NCBI GenBank assembly: GCA_037131895.1
Contig: JBAXQE010000010.1
Location: forward strand, 17,778 to 81,777
DNA length: 64,000 nt
From: Chitinophagia bacterium
GTDB lineage: Bacteria; Bacteroidota; Bacteroidia; Chitinophagales; Chitinophagaceae
Direction: 5' to 3'
Within the stretch, counting starts at the first letter, position 1; each line of letters begins with the position of its first letter. Made by a program: the position numbers and the translations under genes. The notes beneath the pieces were generated by a model. It saw only the letters and a list, made by a program, of their open reading frames with translations, ran no database searches and had not been told where the DNA came from. Positions 19,211-57,513 of the stretch are shown piece after piece.

Positions 19211-19684
19211 ATGAAAATGAATTTCTCCGCCGGTAAATGGTGTTGGCTGTTTATCGGAATTGCATTCACTGCTTGCAACAAGCAGAACGATTCTCCCACT
19301 ACCCCTACAGCGCCCCAAATGGTGCAAGCACTTAAGGGGGATAGTTCGGTAAACGGACTCATCACCGCCCTTACCGCAACTGCCCTCAAAAACAGCTTTA
19401 TTGAAAAGCGAGGCGACCAGGAAACCCGCCTGGTAAAAATTTCGGTGAAGGATTTAATCAATTACCTCCACCAGATGCAAACCAATGCCTATACCGATTC
19501 AATCGGCATTCACATGGGCATCTATACCGCAGCTACTGTTCCCGAGGCTCATCCCGATTATGTGGGCAAATCAACCCTCTATTTTTCGGTATTTCCAGCA
19601 GGTAATCCGGCTACTTCGGGTATCAAAATTTTCGGTAATTCAAACGGCAACACCTTCTTAAATCACGGAACCCTATATCCTTAA
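19211..19684 (+). CDS. Hypothetical lipoprotein, first gene of the signalling cassette
   Basis: Lipobox FTA-C after a hydrophobic stretch (start ATG 19211 or 19217); stop overlaps the next start. Confidence 0.75.
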   Translation: MKMNFSAGKWCWLFIGIAFTACNKQNDSPTTPTAPQMVQALKGDSSVNGLITALTATALKNSFIEKRGDQETRLVKISVKDLINYLHQMQTNAYTDSIGIHMGIYTAATVPEAHPDYVGKSTLYFSVFPAGNPATSGIKIFGNSNGNTFLNHGTLYP

Positions 19685-20346
19685 TGCTATCTATTTTATT
19701 TCTTTTATTGTGGCAGTTACTCACCCTAACCTTAACTGGGGTGGTATACTATAAACAACGCAATTCCGGATTTTTGTTAGTAGCGGGGTTACTGCTTTTA
19801 CAAATACTGGCGAATATTTTTCAGCTGGAGGTATTTAGCAGTAACCCCTTATTTTTTCGAATTCAGTATGCCATTAATTTTCTTTCAGTTGCCGGCTACG
19901 CCTTTTTATTGCTGCTGCAGTTGAATCATCCACACTATAAGCATTTTGCAAAGGCTATACTAGTCTGTTTTACTTGTGCAGCCATTTACTTGCTTTGGAT
20001 ACCATACGATTTACTAATAACCTATATCAACTACCTATTGGTAGCCGCCTCCATTTGTATGGTGCTGCTTAGTGTTCGATACTTATACGAAACAGCCATC
20101 AATCCTCCTATGCCGCTACCACATAGTTCCTTTCCACCCTTTGTTTGGATGGCGGCAGGACTCTGCTGTTATTTCTTATCCATGTCGCTACTGCATGCCT
20201 TTTACGGTTGGCTGCACCAAATAACGCTGCCGGTATCGGGAAGCTGGATTTTTAATCAGGTAAATCAAGTACTGTTGGTGGCTTTGTATATTTTTTTCAG
20301 CGTAGCCCTTTTGATAGGCATACCCAAATCGAAATCATGTATATAA
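19684..20346 (+). CDS. Hypothetical 7-TM membrane protein (putative sensor)
   Basis: Seven hydrophobic segments; PFVWMAAGLCCY in helix 6; coupled to the flanking genes. Confidence 0.8.
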   Translation: MLSILFLLLWQLLTLTLTGVVYYKQRNSGFLLVAGLLLLQILANIFQLEVFSSNPLFFRIQYAINFLSVAGYAFLLLLQLNHPHYKHFAKAILVCFTCAAIYLLWIPYDLLITYINYLLVAASICMVLLSVRYLYETAINPPMPLPHSSFPPFVWMAAGLCCYFLSMSLLHAFYGWLHQITLPVSGSWIFNQVNQVLLVALYIFFSVALLIGIPKSKSCI

Positions 20347-20558
20347 ATCTTTTTGTAAGGAATGTCACCTCTTTCATTATTGCCGCTTCTATTTTGGTGA
20401 GGCTGGATAAGCATTTTTTTCAACCGAATACTGAAAAATTGTTGGGATGGAAAAGCAGTTACTTTCGTATGCATTTTATACAGGGCCGGGTGAATATACA
20501 AACTTATGGCACTGGAACCTGTGTACCCCTATCCGTTCCTATAAGTAAAGCCGAATGA
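20337..20558 (+). pseudogene. Internally deleted NarX-type histidine kinase remnant (N-terminal hydrophobic stub + last HATPase strands)
   Basis: C-terminus GWKSSYFRMHFIQGRVNIQTYGTGTCVPLSVP resembles the GLxNIxSRVxFLxGxxxIxSxxxGTxIxIxIP tail of HisKA_3 kinases; ATGA overlap with the response regulator; H-box and N-box absent. Confidence 0.6.
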
Positions 20559-21217
20559 ACACGAAAGTTGCTGTTGTGGATGATCACCAGTTGGTCCGTA
20601 TCGGATTGGTGCAGATGGTTCAGGCACTTCCCGGGTGGGAGGTAACGATTGAAGCCGCTAATGGCAAAGATTTTATAGATCAAACCAATTTATTATCACC
20701 CCCCGATATTGTACTGTTAGATATTCGCATGCCCATCATGGATGGCTATGAAACTGCCTTGTGGATCCGATCCCATTTACCCGAAACCCGCGTATTAGTG
20801 GTATCTATGGTTAGTCGCGAACCTGCAATAATCCGCATGTTGCGACTGGGGGTTTACGGATTTATTACCAAAGAAAGTACCCAGGCCGAATTGCACCAAG
20901 CCCTGATTCGGATACAACAAAAACAATTTCATGTAAATGAATTAGTGGGTAATCGCATATTTCATTATTTCTCCGAAAACTCCACCGAACAATTACCCGA
21001 CGAAAAAAATGATATTACCGACCGAGAATTTATTTTTTTGCGCAAATGTTGCAGCGAATTAACCTATCGCCAAATTGCAAAGGAAATGCATGTGAGTCCG
21101 CGTACCATCGATACCTATCGAGATCATTTATTCGAAAAGTTGCAGGTACGTACCCGGGTAGGACTAGTAATTTATGCCCTCCGTACTGGCCTGATAGAGG
21201 TGGATGATTTGGTGTAG
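20555..21217 (+). CDS. NarL/LuxR-family response regulator
   Basis: VVDDH, LLDIRMPIMDG (phospho-Asp), GFITK; HTH TYRQIAKEMHVSPRTIDTYR. Confidence 0.95.
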   Translation: MNTKVAVVDDHQLVRIGLVQMVQALPGWEVTIEAANGKDFIDQTNLLSPPDIVLLDIRMPIMDGYETALWIRSHLPETRVLVVSMVSREPAIIRMLRLGVYGFITKESTQAELHQALIRIQQKQFHVNELVGNRIFHYFSENSTEQLPDEKNDITDREFIFLRKCCSELTYRQIAKEMHVSPRTIDTYRDHLFEKLQVRTRVGLVIYALRTGLIEVDDLV

Positions 21218-48249: not shown

Positions 48250-48504
48250 TTTAGTATGTTTAATCGTACTGGTTTTTGTTTGTTTGATTGATGATGTAAA
48301 ATTACTTGCAGGATATAGGGTAAACAACGGGTAAAACACTTAAAGATTGGAGGGGAAAACCCTGTATTTATTTGTAGTGGTATATTTACAGTTGTAGCAA
48401 TTGCTTAGGAAAGAATTTATAAAGCCCATGCTAGTATTGATTTTTAGGAGATGTAATGCGGCTGATTTAGAATTATTTTTCATGGGAGATACTAAGTATT
48501 TGAT

Positions 48505-49284
48505 TTAAAATTCTCTTACCAGACGTATATAATAATGTGCTGGATTTGCATCCTGTACTTTTTGGGTATCTTGTATATGCAGCCAGTATATGGCATCTTG
48601 ATCTTTAAATCCCCAGGCTCCACCTGCTTTAAAGGATGCACTTAGGATGCTCTCTTGCAGCATAGCTAATAATTCGGCAAGGGTAGGAATTCTCCATCCC
48701 CGAATCATTTCTCCATGAATGCTTACGCAATAATGCGCAGCCATTCTTTCTCCATACGACATATTTTTGCCCTGTAGGATGGATAACGGATATTGATTGA
48801 TCGGTAGGTTGTGTTGATTGGGCAGTTTAGAAACGGGAATTCTTTTTACAACATCATTCCACTGAACGGTGGTAATATGATGAGAAATATTGGTTAACAA
48901 GCCATGCGTTCCGGCTTCGTTAATTTGAAAAACGATGCCACCCAGTAAACGTTCGCCAGGATAATGACTGATAGATTGCCAAGTAACCCCATCGAATCTC
49001 TGATAGGATTGCTCACTGGTATTGTATAATATAGTACCGTTTGTAACATTGTTAATATAGGCAATCTGCTGACTGCTCATTCTGGCAGGTTTATAAAATT
49101 GTTTGGGGGTACTTGGATTTACAGGAACAGATATGCGCCCGATACTTTCTTTTTTAGCAAACTTGCCTAGGATTCCTTTTGGGCTCTTTTTGGTAGAAAG
49201 AAATCGCTCTTGAATTTTATTCAATAAACCAGTAGTGGAAACGTTTAAAGCAATATTTGCGTTAGAATATAATGCTGTTTTCAT
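48505..49284 (-). CDS. Hypothetical protein with degenerate DUF1566 (Lcl C-terminal)-like domain
   Basis: PARMSSQQIAYINNVTNGTILYNTSEQSYQRFDGVTW repeat-like motif, then GERLLGGIVFQINEAGTHGL and GWRIPTLAEL, ending YIRLVREF. Confidence 0.6.
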   Translation of the reverse strand: MKTALYSNANIALNVSTTGLLNKIQERFLSTKKSPKGILGKFAKKESIGRISVPVNPSTPKQFYKPARMSSQQIAYINNVTNGTILYNTSEQSYQRFDGVTWQSISHYPGERLLGGIVFQINEAGTHGLLTNISHHITTVQWNDVVKRIPVSKLPNQHNLPINQYPLSILQGKNMSYGERMAAHYCVSIHGEMIRGWRIPTLAELLAMLQESILSASFKAGGAWGFKDQDAIYWLHIQDTQKVQDANPAHYYIRLVREF

Positions 49285-49360: not shown

Positions 49361-49397
49361 AGGGAAAACCCCCTAATTGACATAGGGAAACTCACCG
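49361..49397. promoter_or_regulatory. Tandem candidate operator sites AGGGAAAACCCCCT and AGGGAAACTCACCG
   Basis: About 25 bp upstream of a TAgtTTTG -7 element (49329-49336, minus strand) for the 49284 gene. Confidence 0.45.
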
Positions 49398-49796: not shown

Positions 49797-49809
49797 AGGG
49801 GTTTTCCCT
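49797..49809. promoter_or_regulatory. Candidate operator AGGGGTTTTCCCT upstream of the kinase-regulator pair
   Basis: Reverse complement nearly identical to the 49361 site; about 27 bp upstream of a tgattttg -7-like element. Confidence 0.45.
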
Positions 49810-49923: not shown

Positions 49924-50709
49924 GTGCTCTACCTATTTGCCTTTACTTTTTTATTTCCGGTACTCTACTGGATGCTACAATCTTGGTTTATCCTAGTATT
50001 GTTTTTATTGGTATTGACTATAATTTCTATTGTTTACCTACTTTATTTATCCCAAAAATCTCGAAAAAGGTTAAAGATTGCCAAAGACATGCTTCGGGTA
50101 CAATTAGAGATACAGGACCTAACATTCTCTGCTATCAGTCACGAAATTCATGATAATGTTGGGCAAATTCTTAGTTTGGCTAAGGTTCAATTGAATTTAC
50201 TTTCAGAGGAGGAAATAAAAGAAGGAACATTATTAAACGATGCAAAAGAGAATATCAGCAATGCGTTGATTGATTTGCGCGAAATCGCTAAAAGCCTCTC
50301 TAACAAGAAATTAATTTCATTAGGTCTTTTATCTTCCATTCAACATGAAGCTCACCGATTAGAGGAAACGAATGGATGGGATGTGCAAGTGGCAGTGGAA
50401 GGAAATCCCCTTCCGGTAACCGAAACCCAGCATTTGGTAATATTTAGAGCAATTCAATATTTTCTTAACCGAATTACACAAATGGAAGCGGGCTCAAATA
50501 AAATATCCGTTACCATGGGCTTTTATCCACAAAACTGGCATATCAAAATAGTACACCACAGAAAAGATTCCGATATCAACCAGCAACAAGAACAACAATA
50601 TAACCAAGAACAATCCCTTGTTTTACGAAGATTAGCAATTATTGGGGGTACATTTACAGTAACAGAGAATGGTGAAACGCAGATATTAATACAGATACCT
50701 TATGCTTGA
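49924..50709 (+). CDS. HisKA_3 sensor histidine kinase with degenerate ATP-binding domain (pseudokinase)
   Basis: N-terminal TM; H-box ISHEIHDNVGQILS intact; N-box reads QYFLNRITQM; DxGxG and GxGL boxes replaced by HHRKDS and NQEQS. Confidence 0.85.
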   Translation: MLYLFAFTFLFPVLYWMLQSWFILVLFLLVLTIISIVYLLYLSQKSRKRLKIAKDMLRVQLEIQDLTFSAISHEIHDNVGQILSLAKVQLNLLSEEEIKEGTLLNDAKENISNALIDLREIAKSLSNKKLISLGLLSSIQHEAHRLEETNGWDVQVAVEGNPLPVTETQHLVIFRAIQYFLNRITQMEAGSNKISVTMGFYPQNWHIKIVHHRKDSDINQQQEQQYNQEQSLVLRRLAIIGGTFTVTENGETQILIQIPYA

Positions 50710-51361
50710 TAAACATAACATTGCAGTAGTGGATGATCACACTCTTTTTCGGAAGGGACTGATTTCTCTTATAAATGTTTTTCCAAATTTTGAAGTGATT
50801 TTGGAGGCTTCTAATGGGAAGGATTTTATTGAGCGACTGAATCCTGAGCAGTTACCCGAAATTGTGCTGATGGACATCTCCATGCCAGAAATGGATGGAT
50901 ATGCAACCTGCGAATGGCTGAAAAGTCATTACCCCGCCATTAAAGTGCTGGCCCTGAGTACTATGGATGCAGAAACCGCCATTATTAAAATGATTCGAAG
51001 TGGTGCTAAAGGCTATATTGTAAAAGATGCCGACCTCTCTGAACTTAAACTCGCGTTTTCCGAACTGCTTTCTATCGGCTTCTTTTATAATGAACTGGTT
51101 TCCAGAAAAGTTATTCACTCTATTAGTAGAATTGTTGAAGACAACGATGCAGTTACCGCCCTCCAAAAACTTTCAGACAATGAGTTAACATTTCTTCGAC
51201 TATCCTGCAGTGAAAAAACCTACCAGGAAATCGCCAACGAAATGTTTAAAAGCGAAAAAACCATTGATGGATACCGGGCCGAGTTGTTTAAAAAACTCAA
51301 TGTATCTAGCCGCGTTGGCATGGTAATGTATGCTATCAAAAACGGGATTGTTCAACTATAA
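50702..51361 (+). CDS. NarL/LuxR-family response regulator (paralog of 20555..21217)
   Basis: VVDDH, LMDISMPEMDG, GYIVK, TYQEIANEMFKSEKTIDGYR; overlaps the kinase stop. Confidence 0.95.
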   Translation: MLDKHNIAVVDDHTLFRKGLISLINVFPNFEVILEASNGKDFIERLNPEQLPEIVLMDISMPEMDGYATCEWLKSHYPAIKVLALSTMDAETAIIKMIRSGAKGYIVKDADLSELKLAFSELLSIGFFYNELVSRKVIHSISRIVEDNDAVTALQKLSDNELTFLRLSCSEKTYQEIANEMFKSEKTIDGYRAELFKKLNVSSRVGMVMYAIKNGIVQL

Positions 51362-51536: not shown

Positions 51537-52238
51537 ATGAAAAAACTCTTTATTTCAGCAGCCCTGCTGCTTACTACCTTTGCTTCCGTATCTGCCCAAA
51601 CGGCTGATGAGGTAATTAACAAATACATCGATGCCATTGGCGGAAAAGCTAAGTGGCTCAACTTGAATAGTCTTAAAGTTGAAGGGCAAATAGAAGTACA
51701 GGGAGTATCTATTCCTTTTACTATGCAGGCTATTCAAAATAAGGGTAACAGAACAGATGCTGAATTTCAGGGTATGAAGATTATAGAGATAGTTACACCT
51801 TTAGCTGGTTGGTCTATGAATGGCCTTCAAGGCCAAACTTCCCTCCAACCCATGTCGCAGGAGGATTTAAAAACGAAAGTGGATAATCTTGATATTCAAG
51901 ATCAAATGATTGATTATGCCCAAAAAGGACATAAAGTTGAAATGTTAGGCAAGGATGAAGCAGACGGAAATGAATATTTTAAAGTGAAGCTAACCACCAA
52001 ACAAGGGAACGATAAAGTTTATTTTATTGATACCAAAACTTATTTGCCCTATAAAGTGGAAAATACCATGAATGTAAATGGTCAGGAAGTAAAAGCAGAA
52101 GTGAAATACCTAGATTACCAAACCTTAGAAAATGGAATTAAAATGGCTTTTAAACAAGAAGTAGGCCCTATGATGATGGTATCTAAAAAAATTACGGTTA
52201 ATCCGGTAATTGATGAAAGTCTTTTTAAAGGAAACTAG
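51537..52238 (+). CDS. Secreted LolA-like / outer-membrane lipoprotein-sorting-type protein
   Basis: Signal peptide, AQTADEVINKYIDAIGG, beta-rich body, NPVIDESLFK C-terminus. Confidence 0.75.
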   Translation: MKKLFISAALLLTTFASVSAQTADEVINKYIDAIGGKAKWLNLNSLKVEGQIEVQGVSIPFTMQAIQNKGNRTDAEFQGMKIIEIVTPLAGWSMNGLQGQTSLQPMSQEDLKTKVDNLDIQDQMIDYAQKGHKVEMLGKDEADGNEYFKVKLTTKQGNDKVYFIDTKTYLPYKVENTMNVNGQEVKAEVKYLDYQTLENGIKMAFKQEVGPMMMVSKKITVNPVIDESLFKGN

Positions 52239-52253
52239 TGCATGATTGTTTTT

Positions 52254-52285
52254 TTAAATCGGCTACTAATCAGTAGCCGATTTAA
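52254..52285 (+). terminator. Intergenic hairpin
   Basis: ttaaatcggctact-aatc-agtagccgatttaa between co-oriented genes. Confidence 0.7.
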
Positions 52286-52311
52286 TATATACTATATCTA
52301 AAGCTATTGTT

Positions 52312-55300
52312 ATGAAAAAATTTGGATTCCTTTCTTTCAGTTTCTGTTTGTTTGTGGGTATCGCTACCGCTCAAACTTCTATTAATTCTTCTTTTTTTCA
52401 GGTGATGAGTGCCCGTTCCCTTGGCCCCTCTACCATGAGTGGTCGCATTACCGCTATTGAGGGTATCATTTCCGAAAAGCAGGTGAACTTATATGTGGGT
52501 ACTGCCGGTGGTGGTATTTGGAAAAGTCAAAATGGGGGTATTTCCTTCTCACCCATATTCGATAAATACGCTCAATCCATTGGAGCCTTAGCCATTGAGC
52601 CTGGAAATGCCAAAGTAGTATATGCTGGCACCGGAGAAAGTAATATGCGCAATTCGGTTTCCATTGGGGTTGGTATGTATAAAACCACCGATGGAGGCAG
52701 TAATTGGCAGAAATTAGGCTTAGATAGTACTGAGCACATCAGCAAAATCATCATCGACCCTGCCGATAAAAAAACTTTATACGTAGCTGCACCCGGGCCA
52801 CTCTGGCACGATTCACCGCATCGGGGTTTGTATAAATCAACCGATGCTGGTAAAACCTGGCAAAAGATATGGTTTGTAGATAATCAAACCGGCTGCGCAG
52901 ATATAGCGGTTCATCCTCAACAGTCCAATATAATTCTGGCTTCTAGCTGGCAGTTCAGAAGAAAAGCTTACGCATTTAGTTCGGGTGGCCTCGGTAGTGG
53001 ATTATTTAAATCGGAAGATGCCGGTAAAACTTGGCGAAAATTAACCAATGGATTACCGGAAGGTTTATTGGGAAGAATTGTTATTTCCATGAATCCTTCT
53101 CAACCCTCTCAAATTTTAGCCATCGTAGAAGCTAAAAATCCGGGTTTATATATTTCAAACGATTTGGGTGAAACCTGGAAAAAATTAAGTGTTACCGAAA
53201 ATATCACAGCTCGCCCTTTTTACTTCAGCACCCTGGTGCACGATCCAAAAGATCCTAAGCGGGTATATCGACCTTCCTTTGCATTTGAATACTCAGATGA
53301 TGGGGGATATTCATGGAGTAGCAATATATCTGGAGGGGTTGTACCTCATTCCGATCACCACGCTTTATGGGTGAATCCACAACAAACCGATCAATTATTT
53401 TTAGGTACTGATGGTGGAGTTTATGTAAGTTATAACCGCGGTAACAGCTGGCAATTTTTAAATAACCTGCCAGTAGGTCAATTTTATCATGTAAGTGTTG
53501 ACCAACAAAAAGATTACCGAGTATTTGGTGGCTTGCAAGACAATAACAGCTGGGTAGCCCCCAATTCTCAACCCGGTGGCGTTTCCGCGGCTGACTGGAA
53601 GGTAATCGGAGGTGGCGATGGTTTTTGGGTGCAGGCAAGTCCCTTTAATCCCAATATCATGTTTTCTGAAAGTCAGGGGGGTGAAATGAATCGCGTTGAC
53701 CTAGCAACTGGTTTAACTACTGGTATCCGTCCTAAAAAACAGGCGGGAGAAGAAGAACATCGTTGGAACTGGAATACACCTATTGTAATTGCTCCATCAG
53801 CCAGTAAAACGCCTCAAGGTAAATCTAGTTATAATTTATATACCGGAGCTCAATACCTCTTCCGGTCGCGGGATGAAGGCAGAAGTTGGGAGAGAATTTC
53901 TCCAGATCTTACTACTAATGATACGCTAAAAAAACAGCAAACCGAAAATAGCGGCGGAATAACTGGTGATAATACCAGTGCTGAAAACCATTGTACCATT
54001 TTTACCCTGGCACAGCGCCCCGACAATGAACAAATTATTTGGGTGGGTACGGATGATGGGCATTTACAGCTAACCACGAATGGCGGAAAAACCTGGGAGC
54101 GCAAAGAAAAAGGTATTTATCAAACCGGCGTTCCGGAGCATGCTTGGATCAGCAGTATCACCCTTTCTGCTCATCAGAAGCAACGGGTTTTTGTAACGCT
54201 CGATCACCACATGTACGGCGATCATAAAACCTATGCAGTAGTAAGTGAAGATGGCGGAAATACTTGGAAAAAATTCAATTCAGATGAATTCACAGGCTTT
54301 GCGCATATTTTGTTAGAAGATCCTATAAATCCTAACCTGGTATTTCTGGGTACAGAAATGGGCTTTTTTATATCGTTGGATGCCGGTAAAAACTGGATGC
54401 GTAGTAAATACCAAAATATGCCTTGGTACACGCCAGTAAGAGATTTGCAAGTCAATCGGGTAACCAATGATTTAGTAATCGCAACACATGGCAGAGGTAT
54501 TTATATTATCGACAACTTGCAGCCTCTGCGAGATATGGCAAAAGCAGATCTGAATAAAGAGATACATTTTTTCACGCCAGATCCTTTTGTGTATAGTTTA
54601 TCGGGACAATTTCCACAATCACCCCCTAATATTAGTGGATGGGTGGGAGAAAGTAAGCCTGTATTTCCTACCTTCTATTATTACTTAAAAGATAGAAGTT
54701 CGGATGCGGTAAAAATTGCCATCTTCGATGAAGCAGGAAAGAAATTGAAAGATTTAAATGGAACGGGCGTGAAGGGTTTGAATAAAGTTTTCTGGGGGCT
54801 TTCCATTAATCCGCCAAAAGTGGCTAAAGGAGGCTTTATTGCGCAAACCAGTGTTTTGTCTGCTTCGGTAATTTCTCCCAATGTGCCGGCAGGTAAATAC
54901 AAGATAGTGGTAACCCACAATAAAATTAATTACGAGCAGTGGTTACTCATTAAGCCCAATGATGCAGCAGGATTTACAGCAGAAAAGCTGAAAAAATTAA
55001 ATGCGCAGGGTATGCGTTTGTATCAGATGGAGGAAGAATTGCACAAATGGGTGGATACCTTAGATAAAAAAATAGTGCAGGTTCAATCCGCCGATACAAC
55101 TCAGCCTGCCACAGCCCAAAAATTGAAGACACTTAACGATTTACGGAAAGAAATTATAGAAACGAACCGGAAATCTATTTTCTTCGACGAATTTAAATTC
55201 CGTAGAAGATTGAGTGATTTATATGTAAGTGTTTGTTCTCAAACAGAGCCTCTGAGTGCCAATCAGGAAAAAGGAATTGATGTAATGAAGCAAGAACTCG

Positions 55301-55335
55301 ACGACTTTATCCGGCGTATTCAGGCAGTTTTGTAA
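52312..55335 (+). CDS. Secreted sortilin/VPS10 (BNR/Asp-box) beta-propeller protein (paralog of 27379..30438)
   Basis: GPSTMSGRITAI, GGIWKSQNGG, HSDHHALWVNP, RWNWNTPI, IATHGRGIYIIDN. Confidence 0.9.
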   Translation: MKKFGFLSFSFCLFVGIATAQTSINSSFFQVMSARSLGPSTMSGRITAIEGIISEKQVNLYVGTAGGGIWKSQNGGISFSPIFDKYAQSIGALAIEPGNAKVVYAGTGESNMRNSVSIGVGMYKTTDGGSNWQKLGLDSTEHISKIIIDPADKKTLYVAAPGPLWHDSPHRGLYKSTDAGKTWQKIWFVDNQTGCADIAVHPQQSNIILASSWQFRRKAYAFSSGGLGSGLFKSEDAGKTWRKLTNGLPEGLLGRIVISMNPSQPSQILAIVEAKNPGLYISNDLGETWKKLSVTENITARPFYFSTLVHDPKDPKRVYRPSFAFEYSDDGGYSWSSNISGGVVPHSDHHALWVNPQQTDQLFLGTDGGVYVSYNRGNSWQFLNNLPVGQFYHVSVDQQKDYRVFGGLQDNNSWVAPNSQPGGVSAADWKVIGGGDGFWVQASPFNPNIMFSESQGGEMNRVDLATGLTTGIRPKKQAGEEEHRWNWNTPIVIAPSASKTPQGKSSYNLYTGAQYLFRSRDEGRSWERISPDLTTNDTLKKQQTENSGGITGDNTSAENHCTIFTLAQRPDNEQIIWVGTDDGHLQLTTNGGKTWERKEKGIYQTGVPEHAWISSITLSAHQKQRVFVTLDHHMYGDHKTYAVVSEDGGNTWKKFNSDEFTGFAHILLEDPINPNLVFLGTEMGFFISLDAGKNWMRSKYQNMPWYTPVRDLQVNRVTNDLVIATHGRGIYIIDNLQPLRDMAKADLNKEIHFFTPDPFVYSLSGQFPQSPPNISGWVGESKPVFPTFYYYLKDRSSDAVKIAIFDEAGKKLKDLNGTGVKGLNKVFWGLSINPPKVAKGGFIAQTSVLSASVISPNVPAGKYKIVVTHNKINYEQWLLIKPNDAAGFTAEKLKKLNAQGMRLYQMEEELHKWVDTLDKKIVQVQSADTTQPATAQKLKTLNDLRKEIIETNRKSIFFDEFKFRRRLSDLYVSVCSQTEPLSANQEKGIDVMKQELDDFIRRIQAVL

Positions 55336-56234: not shown

Positions 56235-56861
56235 ATGAGAATTTTAATAGCCGACGACCATACCCTGATACGAGAAGGATTGCGTAAGATTCTGTCTGAA
56301 GCTTTTCCTTTTGCCGAAATTACCGATGTGGCAGACTCAGCTGATTTACTGAAAAATGCCCTAATGCATACGTGGGATATCATTATATCTGATATAAGCA
56401 TGCCTGGATATTCGGGAATAGAAATTCTCAAACAAATTAAAGAGCATGCACCCCTTACTCCGGTATTAATTCTATCAATGCATGCTCCGGAGCAATATGC
56501 TGTTCGCTCTTTGCGCTCTGGTGCCTCCGGATACTTAACTAAAGAAAGCGCCCCATTTGAACTGGTTAAGGCGGTTAAACAGATTTTATCTGGCAGAAAA
56601 TATATTACCAGCGAAGTGGCAGAAGTACTCGCCGGTTCCATTGAAGATAATAATTCACAGCAACCCCACACATCTCTTTCTGATCGCGAGTTTGAGGTTT
56701 TTAAGATGATAGTGATGGGGCAAAGCATATCTGCTATTGGTGAACAACTGAGCTTGAATGTAAATACTATTAGCACCTATCGGAGCCGAATCATGGAAAA
56801 AATGAACATGAAAACCAATGCAGATTTGGTTAAATATGCTATCCTCAATAGTATTATATAA
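56235..56861 (+). CDS. NarL/UvrY-type response regulator
   Basis: IADDH, ISDISMPG, SGASGYLTK, LSDREFEVFKMIVMG..TISTYRSRIMEK. Confidence 0.95.
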   Translation: MRILIADDHTLIREGLRKILSEAFPFAEITDVADSADLLKNALMHTWDIIISDISMPGYSGIEILKQIKEHAPLTPVLILSMHAPEQYAVRSLRSGASGYLTKESAPFELVKAVKQILSGRKYITSEVAEVLAGSIEDNNSQQPHTSLSDREFEVFKMIVMGQSISAIGEQLSLNVNTISTYRSRIMEKMNMKTNADLVKYAILNSII

Positions 56862-57126: not shown

Positions 57127-57513
57127 ATGAAATATCCTTCTTTTCATGTATTACTGGTAGACGATATGAAAATCATTTTACAAAAAATGAAAATGTTTAT
57201 CTCTAACATACCTTATGTTACCAGAGTTGATACCGCCAGTAGTGCGCAGGAAGCTTTTACCTTTTTACAGACATCTAATCCCGAACTTGTAGTATTAGAT
57301 GTAAATATGCCCGGTACCAATGGCATTGAAATATTACAGCGTATCCGTAAAAGTACGGGGCACCAGCCAATAGTAATCATGCTTACCAATGAAACAGGCA
57401 GCCAATTTAAAGAGACCTGCCTCCAATCCGGGGCTGATTATTATTTGGATAAATCGAAAGACTTTTTGAAAATTCCCATCATCATCGGGGAATTAATTGC
57501 TAAGCATGCCTGA
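57127..57513 (+). CDS. Single-domain response regulator receiver
   Basis: LLVDD, VLDVNMPG, IMLT, YLDK; no output domain. Confidence 0.92.
   Translation: MKYPSFHVLLVDDMKIILQKMKMFISNIPYVTRVDTASSAQEAFTFLQTSNPELVVLDVNMPGTNGIEILQRIRKSTGHQPIVIMLTNETGSQFKETCLQSGADYYLDKSKDFLKIPIIIGELIAKHA

Follow-up and report, generated by a model that had tools for sequence, protein, structure and literature searches.

The window analysed here, a stretch of 64,000 nucleotides from contig JBAXQE010000010.1 of a Chitinophagia bacterium, carries at 49924–51361 an operon of two overlapping genes encoding a membrane-anchored histidine pseudokinase and an intact response regulator of the NarL/LuxR type (regulator 50702). 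The pseudokinase has kept the phospho-acceptor histidine of its dimerization and histidine phosphotransfer (DHp) domain and, according to prediction, the fold of its catalytic and ATP-binding (CA) domain, has lost the motifs for ATP binding and is retained by purifying selection throughout its clade. We tentatively propose, at slightly less than an even chance, that it is dead as a kinase and, locked in its conformation, serves regulator 50702 as a phosphatase or gatekeeper, phosphorylation of the regulator occurring in trans. The operon has the following features (window coordinates):

49924..50709, + strand: histidine pseudokinase gene, 261 amino acids (aa), GTG start (exact codon uncertain by a few codons); short N-terminal tail, one transmembrane (TM) helix, HisKA_3 DHp domain and degenerate CA-like domain
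49984..50052, + strand: predicted single TM helix, approximately residues 21–43, the hydrophobic run FILVLFLLVLTIISIVYLLYL read from the sequence
50080..50331, + strand: DHp domain (HisKA_3), residues ~53–136, assigned by Pfam
50098–50100 and 50119–50121, + strand: codons of V59 and L66, the clade-specific hydrophobic substitutions of the signalling helix
50149–50166, + strand: H-box H76-D-N-V-G-Q81, inside the DHp domain, intact
50332..50706, + strand: degenerate CA-like domain, residues 137–261, assigned by a hidden Markov model (HMM) of canonical CA domains and the AlphaFold2 (AF2) fold
50455–50484, 50554–50571 and 50602–50616, + strand: former N box QYFLNRITQM, former G1 box HHRKDS and former G2 box NQEQS
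50702..51361, + strand: NarL/LuxR-type response regulator, 219 aa, with REC domain and GerE helix-turn-helix
50702..50709, + strand: 8-nucleotide (nt) overlap ATGCTTGA of kinase stop and regulator start, translational coupling

Loss of the ATP-binding motifs in a conserved kinase framework

Pfam recognized HisKA_3 (PF07730; E = 3.4e-7, 31.1 bits at a cut-off of 24) as the sole significant match of the pseudokinase, and HATPase_c (PF02518) was not detected in it even at E ≤ 1; a 267-aa paralog of the same architecture from the same genome, used as control, gave HATPase_c with E = 1.2e-11. How the ATP site was altered became apparent from an alignment with relatives of equal length, 20 of them close and 10 more distant. 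The canonical N box FRiiQEalqNiiKH (core QEalqNiiKH) is changed to FRAIQYFLNRITQM, whereby the Glu, the Mg-binding Asn and the Lys-His pair are all replaced. The G1 box, DNGkGF in the relatives, reads HHRKDS, and the G2 box, GLGLqNi in the relatives, reads EQSLVLR, NQEQS being aligned with xGLGL. The H-box includes the DxxxQ phosphatase motif. When the four motifs were scored by regular expressions, the H-box was present and the N, G1 and G2 boxes were absent in 33 of 33 metagenome clusters and 12 of 12 genome loci of the clade described below (45/45), and all four motifs were present in 82 of 83 canonical relatives; this difference is far beyond chance. Within the clade His76, the following Asn, Val and Gly and Gln81 are invariant (His76 in 43/43 members), and D77 is found in at least 90% of the members, Glu taking its place in a few. 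The first-pass annotation of this locus, which had described a full-length open reading frame (ORF) with an intact H-box and with QYFLNRITQM, HHRKDS and NQEQS in place of the ATP-binding boxes, is borne out in this respect by the ORF, Pfam and alignment data.

The C-terminal half of the protein matches an HMM built from canonical CA domains with E = 6.5e-16. In the AF2 model one continuous helix of residues 2–96 enters a long helical hairpin, which is followed by a beta-alpha-beta-beta-alpha-beta-beta sandwich. Foldseek returned DesKC structures as top matches in the PDB (E = 7e-8) and superimposed the isolated CA domains of VraS and VanS with TM-scores of ~0.72–0.74 (VraS, TMt 0.74); a PDB sequence search with the whole pseudokinase yielded nothing significant, the kinase core being recognized by the fold search only. 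Judged from profile and model, the C-terminal half appears as a degenerate CA domain in which the Bergerat-type alpha/beta fold has been kept, and not as something new. The pseudokinase is predicted from its sequence to be no longer able to bind ATP or to autophosphorylate. A search with a subfamily HMM for a CA domain encoded by itself, as in the split kinase HK1/HK2 of Mycobacterium, gave no short stand-alone match.

Regulator 50702 gave clear Pfam matches to REC (E = 1.1e-23) and GerE (E = 5.9e-11), and sequence reading and alignment reveal the acidic pair D11/D12, the phospho-acceptor D58, S86/T87 and K108 as retained, in agreement with its earlier description as intact.

Distribution, origin and selection

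The pseudokinase clade comprises 12 species genomes (GTDB species genomes) and 33 metagenome clusters at 90% identity, all from freshwater Chitinophagaceae, and the genomes bearing it are metagenome-assembled genomes labelled Sediminibacterium, Chitinophagaceae or similar; close relatives were assembled from lakes such as Lake Mendota and Lac Pavin. The clade is narrow and belongs to uncultured lineages; in a sample of 401 GTDB genomes of the family it was found in the window's own genome only. In a collection of 5.8 billion proteins the matches split sharply: PF02518 is absent from all of the clusters P0001–P0035 (52–92% identity, ~260 aa), which have PF07730 or neither family, whereas all matches of ≤42% identity have both families. 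Likewise, in a library clustered at 50% identity (1.84 billion representatives) the clade collapses to one representative with E = 4.5e-82, and the next match has E = 4e-31. The maximum-likelihood (ML) tree places the clade on one branch (Shimodaira–Hasegawa-like approximate likelihood-ratio test, SH-aLRT, 100) with a long stem (2.03 substitutions per site) that lies within the canonical short kinases, so that a single origin suffices. Among the 150 best cluster representatives four further short Bacteroidota HisKA_3 kinases (P0214, P0224, P0233 and P0189), independent of the clade, have no G1 and G2 boxes and some of them no N box either, which suggests that CA degeneration may be recurrent in the short HisKA_3 family.

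The gene order pseudokinase, regulator, LolA-like protein and 1007-aa protein of the BNR/sortilin type is kept in those clade loci that are long enough to show it, and upstream genes recur as well. The regulator adjoins the pseudokinase in all complete orthologous loci. Most of these share the 8-nt overlap, which is also present in the canonical cassette of genome G130; with the starts as called, the overlap amounts to 20 nt in locus L012 and to 17 nt in L013.

Ratios of nonsynonymous to synonymous substitution rates (dN/dS) were obtained by the Nei-Gojobori method from unsaturated pairs only, since outside the four closest genomes the synonymous sites are saturated. The overall value for the pseudokinase is 0.08–0.15, composed of 0.01–0.07 for the DHp domain, 0.11–0.18 for the CA-like domain and 0.08–0.26 for the TM part; the neighbouring regulator and LolA-like gene gave 0.02–0.03 and 0.11–0.12, respectively. 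Across the clade the pseudokinase varies between 52 and 96% identity compared with 84–97% for the regulator; none of the 12 species and 33 clusters has an interrupted ORF. Mean pairwise identity is unevenly distributed over the chain, being 90% and 79% in helices alpha1 and alpha2 of the DHp domain, 85% in the former N-box helix, 90% in the last CA helix, 31% in the equivalent of the G1-lid-G2 stretch and 40% in the TM helix, which besides the lid region is the least conserved part. An active kinase encoded without a regulator in the same genomes (see below) displays an equal segment profile except for G1-lid-G2, where it reaches 57%. The nucleotide loop has thus been released from constraint, and the rest of the pseudokinase is held as tightly as in a working kinase. 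The pseudokinase is retained by purifying selection and is not decaying. The initial suggestion of a retained pseudokinase, for which dN/dS across orthologs had been named as a check, has therefore gained support from the monophyletic clade, the synteny, a dN/dS of ~0.1 and a DHp helix as conserved as in active paralogs.

A possible locked phosphatase and the competing explanations

Counted at fixed offsets N-terminal to the histidine, the signalling helix bears Val at His−17 (V59) and Leu at His−10 (L66) in 43/43 clade members, positions occupied in 198 canonical relatives by Ser, Thr, Ala or Asn (193 sequences) and by Gln, Glu, His, Asn or Ser (183 sequences), respectively. By our reading of the spacing, M56, V59, I63, L66 and A70 would line up as a heptad seam without interruption. 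A related situation is found in DesK, which belongs to the same DHp family (HisKA_3, H-D-x-x-x-Q) and is the best structural match of the model. Exchange of polar core residues upstream of its histidine for Ile and Leu (S150I/S153L/R157I) results in a constitutive phosphatase with a stable coiled coil, a buried histidine and CA domains packed onto the DHp domain, which in this locked state add >400 Å2 to the regulator interface (PMC5231405). DxxxQ is the phosphatase motif of the HisKA_3 family and is needed by NarX and DesK for this activity (PMC3510030, PMC5231405); the histidine is dispensable for it in NarX, as far as the citing account in PMC5231405 goes. Like the DesKC-STAB variant, the clade possesses hydrophobic residues in place of polar core residues N-terminal to the histidine, and by this analogy it resembles a switch locked in the off/phosphatase conformation. 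Such a lock would also account for the conservation of both main helices in the dead CA domain. DesK itself, in contrast to the pseudokinase, is active and switchable, spans the membrane with five TM helices and has its ATP site complete; the lock in the clade is proposed by analogy.

We propose the following scenario. The pseudokinase would be a membrane-anchored HisKA_3 paralog unable to bind ATP, and selection would have preserved it for a four-helix DHp bundle to which the regulator of its own operon can still dock. V59 and L66, by filling polar core positions of the signalling coiled coil, would hold the DHp domain rigid, CA-docked and phosphatase-competent as in DesK. As a constitutive phosphatase or gatekeeper, the protein would then maintain regulator 50702 in the unphosphorylated state and shield it from cross-talk; the phosphoryl group would be supplied in trans by an active kinase.

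The best candidate for this kinase resides on another contig of the same genome (2.88 Mb, 99.5% complete), which encodes six HisKA_3 kinases and seven NarL-type regulators, most of them apart from each other. Bacteroidota have a four-gene cassette of a small secreted protein, a seven-transmembrane (7TM) protein, a HisKA_3 kinase with one TM helix and a NarL regulator; in contrast, no 7TM gene directly precedes the pseudokinase gene, whose upstream neighbour is a divergent non-7TM gene (48505–49284) across an intergenic region of 640 nt. Contig C20 carries a complete cassette of 7TM protein (219 aa), short kinase (267 aa) and regulator. On contig C1 (59079–60508) a 7TM protein (227 aa) and a short canonical HisKA_3 kinase (267 aa) occur without an adjoining regulator, and no REC domain was found across this contig. 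Most genomes with the pseudokinase contain the orphan C1 pair in the same gene context (loci L098–L105, L110 and L111). Tandem extra copies of it occur in genomes G402 and G403, the former also containing a kinase fragment with two TAA stops. None of the 7TM proteins belongs to a Pfam family.

A link between the C1 pair and regulator 50702 is provided by the outgroups G130 and G398, members of the same genus without the pseudokinase. They contain the best matches of regulator 50702 (69% and 60% identity) within complete cassettes of 7TM protein, canonical kinase and regulator, preceded by a 179-aa protein in G130 and a 302-aa ORF in G398. The kinase of these cassettes is the reciprocal best hit of the orphan C1 kinase and not of the pseudokinase. 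The pseudokinase and the G130 kinase have the same response-regulator-docking helix, EIHDNVGQILSLAKVQLN, from which that of the C1 orphan differs by three conservative exchanges, and the alpha1 helix DDHTLFRKGL is the same in regulator 50702 and the G130 regulator; over the DHp domain, pseudokinase and orphan kinase share only 38 of 74 residues. The proposed wiring builds on docking-helix similarity and reciprocal best hits. As the division of one ancestral cassette into two loci is the simplest history, the C1 pair is most plausibly the first candidate phosphodonor for regulator 50702.

In this history an ancestral cassette of small protein, 7TM protein, kinase and regulator would have split into a sensor-plus-kinase locus and a dead-kinase-plus-regulator locus. 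Taken to its full extent, it describes a natural split cassette arisen by duplication, one copy of which kept the 7TM protein and the activity and lost the regulator, and the other kept the regulator, lost ATP binding and was turned by two core substitutions into a signal-blind phosphatase/gatekeeper or a PhyT-like bifunctional phosphotransferase; the protein would then be the first natural pseudokinase of the HisKA_3/NarL class and the first in Bacteroidota. We regard this composite account as possible, albeit with more doubt than belief.

Several points speak against a locked phosphatase and its assigned donor. The monomeric AF2 model is of moderate confidence, with a predicted local distance difference test (pLDDT) score of 72.8 that falls to ~50–60 in the DHp domain. 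The coiled-coil argument is an analogy to DesK, in which the substituted positions are not identical, and V/L changes of the helix were sought and not found in the other degenerate relatives P0214, P0224, P0233 and P0189, three of these singletons counting against the argument. In the laboratory-evolved ChrS pseudokinase the loss of the CA domain abolished the phosphatase activity rather than locking it (PMC9491836), and PhyT, long assumed to be a phosphatase on similar evidence, proved to be a phosphotransferase without phosphatase activity detectable in vitro (PMC5898713). Given that NarX, as cited in PMC5231405, does not need the histidine as a phosphatase, the invariance of His76 fits phosphotransfer at least equally well. 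With respect to the donor, two long kinases on C1 have similar docking helices, and four other NarL-type regulators of the genome are likewise orphans, one of which could be served by the orphan kinase. Finally, the sister group of the pseudokinase clade is not resolved by the ML tree. The two long kinases just mentioned lie in tandem at C1 41367–44806; they are multi-TM HisKA_3 proteins of ~568 aa, close mutual paralogs and without an adjacent regulator.

The strongest competitor, which we consider doubtful but worth serious attention, is a phosphotransferase or relay function like that of PhyT, ChpT or Spo0B, in which His76 is phosphorylated in trans and passes the phosphoryl group to regulator 50702. 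It draws on the invariance of His76 in all 43 members, although HisKA_3 kinases do not require this residue as phosphatases, and on a PhyT-like architecture with a histidine-bearing DHp domain and a degenerate CA domain, anchored in the membrane and encoded beside its regulator, the kinases being scattered elsewhere. PhyT (formerly PhyP) of Sphingomonas melonis and PhyP-type proteins are likewise membrane-anchored and kinase-derived, with the DHp histidine kept and the ATPase domain degenerate, and the gene of PhyT adjoins that of its regulator, at a distance from the active kinases (PMC5898713). PhyT inhibits its regulator by forming a complex with it and activates it by phosphotransfer (PMC5898713). 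It differs from the pseudokinase by its HWE/HisKA_2 class (HRxxN), its periplasmic domain and its target, the anti-anti-sigma regulator PhyR, whereas the pseudokinase is a HisKA_3 protein with DxxxQ, a single TM helix, no sensor domain, a DNA-binding partner of the NarL/LuxR type, an origin in Bacteroidota and a donor receiver that is only a candidate. ChpT (Caulobacter) and Spo0B (Bacillus), the classical cases of kinase-derived relays, also combine a DHp-like bundle containing a phosphorylatable histidine with an alpha/beta domain that does not bind ATP, both having evolved from histidine kinases (PMC3433190). Unlike the pseudokinase, they are soluble, belong to defined multistep phosphorelays and share no operon with a NarL-type regulator, and their sequences are not detectably related to the clade.

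In such a relay the phosphoryl group could come from a single-domain receiver or, in a heterodimer, from the CA domain of an active paralog; the pseudokinase might, in addition, sequester the unphosphorylated regulator. A candidate receiver, a 128-aa REC protein (57127–57513), is encoded ~6 kb downstream of the operon; 9 of the 12 clade genomes possess it, and its synteny is kept in G000, G405 and G411 at least. It adjoins, however, a different NarL regulator, and there is no operonic link to the pseudokinase because three genes intervene, one of them on the opposite strand. This neighbouring regulator (56235–56861, 208 aa) is the third of the NarL type in the window, and no kinase is encoded near it and the receiver. 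Heterodimers are documented for HisKA_3 kinases by ChrS-HrrS (PMC9491836) and yet are not implied here, in view of the 38/74 identity of the DHp domains. By the analogy to DesK, moreover, the hydrophobic seam of V59 and L66 would bury the histidine.

A pure scaffold or allosteric modulator in the manner of DivL or ChrS_CA-fs, which binds the regulator, an active kinase or a 7TM sensor without any phosphoryl chemistry, appears unlikely. The laboratory-evolved ChrS pseudokinase and DivL demonstrate that neither the histidine nor the ATPase domain is necessary for such a function (PMC9491836). The highly conserved helices of the pseudokinase, namely the former N-box helix and the last CA-like helix (85–90%), could mark a protein-protein surface. 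What this explanation leaves unaccounted for is the essentially complete invariance of His76, D77 and Q81 in a protein whose remainder falls to ~50% identity. RetS of Pseudomonas is a hybrid kinase that acts on the kinase GacS. Together with DivL (Caulobacter) and PsmA (Streptomyces, PMC12963549) it represents kinase-like proteins acting without autokinase activity via protein contacts; DivL and PsmA have no phosphorylatable histidine, which is intact and invariant in the pseudokinase, and none of the three is of the HisKA_3 class or operonic with a NarL regulator. ChrS_CA-fs of Corynebacterium glutamicum is closer to our case insofar as it is a HisKA_3 protein with a disabled CA domain, in which the dead kinase still matters for the output and the NarL-type regulator is phosphorylated by the paralogous kinase HrrS (PMC9491836). 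It originated, however, from a frameshift in laboratory evolution and has lost the phosphatase activity, whereas the pseudokinase is natural, full-length, present in 12 species and under purifying selection.

An earlier proposal, which we now find very improbable, combined the pseudokinase, as a histidine domain without sensor, with a second cassette at 19–21 kb of the window, which consists of a lipoprotein, a 7TM gene (19684–20346), a kinase remnant and a regulator (20555–21217), into one cross-wired composite system. As claimed in that proposal the kinase of the cassette is disabled, only a stub being left:

20337..20558, + strand: kinase stub of 73 codons in the second cassette, judged not to be part of the pseudokinase system

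The stub joins the first ~25 and the last ~40 residues (…LLGWKSSYFRMHFIQGRVNIQTYGTGTCVPLSVPISKAE) of a 254-aa kinase which is whole in genome G404 (L092). An in-frame deletion of ~540 nt has removed the histidine and most of the CA domain and is common to the window genome and its three closest relatives (L089–L091). The stub still overlaps the regulator start. Since it does so and is open in all four genomes with the deletion, a small membrane peptide may be made from it. Beyond the complementary gene content of the two loci, the composite system is suggested by the regulators 20555 and 50702, each other's nearest paralogs, and by the 7TM protein and regulator 20555, which are still 83–99% conserved after the deletion. 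The stated close similarity of the two regulators was nevertheless exaggerated; their reciprocal paralogy holds by a narrow margin, at an identity of only 45% compared with 41% and 40% for the next paralogs (41% and 39% for the C20 regulator). Timing, docking residues and the better partner on C1 all speak against cross-wiring. Judged from its occurrence in 4 genomes, as opposed to 12 species for the pseudokinase, the deletion is much younger, and G404 has pseudokinase and intact cassette kinase side by side. The docking helix ELHDDAGQQMIVLQQY of the cassette kinase in G404 is very different from EIHDNVGQILSLAKVQ of the pseudokinase, as is the alpha1 helix DDHQLVRIGLVQMVQ of regulator 20555 from that of regulator 50702. 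The lineage of the cassette kinase is, in addition, the most distant in the tree (branches >3), and the orphan 7TM-plus-kinase pair on C1 offers a better complement. Among 150 family genomes no recognizable relative of the 19–21 kb 7TM protein was detected except for a weak paralog in the own genome.

Hardly credible, even taken together, are an active kinase with non-canonical ATP binding, to which the conserved CA fold and its two main helices might point but against which speak the missing Mg-binding Asn, DxGxG and GxGxG motifs and a lid region under less constraint than any other segment, and a gene in neutral decay, which the faster evolution relative to the regulator (52–96% versus 84–97% identity) and the long stem branch might indicate and which the selection data refute (dN/dS ~0.1, ORF open in 12 species and 33 clusters, translational coupling conserved).

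Novelty and neighbouring elements

Kinase-derived proteins with dead ATP sites are already established by ChpT, Spo0B, PhyT, DivL, RetS and PsmA. New in the present case is a natural, old and full-length example of the HisKA_3/NarL class in Bacteroidota, for which the ancestral and derived arrangements are both visible and which carries a specific structural signature; no natural ChrS pseudokinase was known to the authors of the ChrS_CA-fs study (PMC9491836). The conversion of a working two-component pair into a dead-kinase device is rarely seen in nature, and here the state before, in the outgroups with the whole cassette, and the state after, as an orphan sensor-plus-kinase pair and a dead-kinase-plus-regulator pair, are both available. 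The dead copy is distinguished by the absence of the ATP motifs, a relaxed lid, a frozen docking helix and two hydrophobic substitutions in the signalling helix. If the phosphatase lock were true, the pseudokinase would be a natural counterpart of the engineered DesK-STAB mutant and would allow dedicated phosphatase paralogs, which are now annotated as "sensor histidine kinase", to be recognized from sequence by a simple rule; it would also caution against reading the wiring of kinases and regulators from gene adjacency. The scattered CA-degenerate relatives hint at a recurrent bacterial route from a kinase to a dedicated response-regulator phosphatase.

Upstream of the operon a short palindrome recurs:

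49799..49808, no strand assigned: palindrome GGGTTTTCCC, ~115 nt upstream of the start codon, just 5′ of a conserved promoter-like block
49362–49371 and 48353–48362: further exact copies of GGGTTTTCCC

The 2.88-Mb genome contains 7 exact copies, 3 of which lie inside 1.45 kb around the operon, and the one at 49799 is shared by the window genome and its closest relatives L009–L011. Only exact copies cluster, as matches with one mismatch are not enriched in the window (8 found, 5.7 expected). Conservation of the strict motif AGGG-N5–7-CCCT upstream of the orthologs ends with the closest relatives, the upstream region of L012 being masked. From position and copy number the palindrome is probably a candidate operator of regulator 50702, by which the operon would be autoregulated and the divergent neighbours controlled. 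The genes downstream of the operon (51537–55335) encode a protein with the LolA-like lipoprotein-carrier fold and the secreted 1007-aa protein with BNR/sortilin-Vps10 repeats, which are possibly targets of the system or merely stable neighbours.

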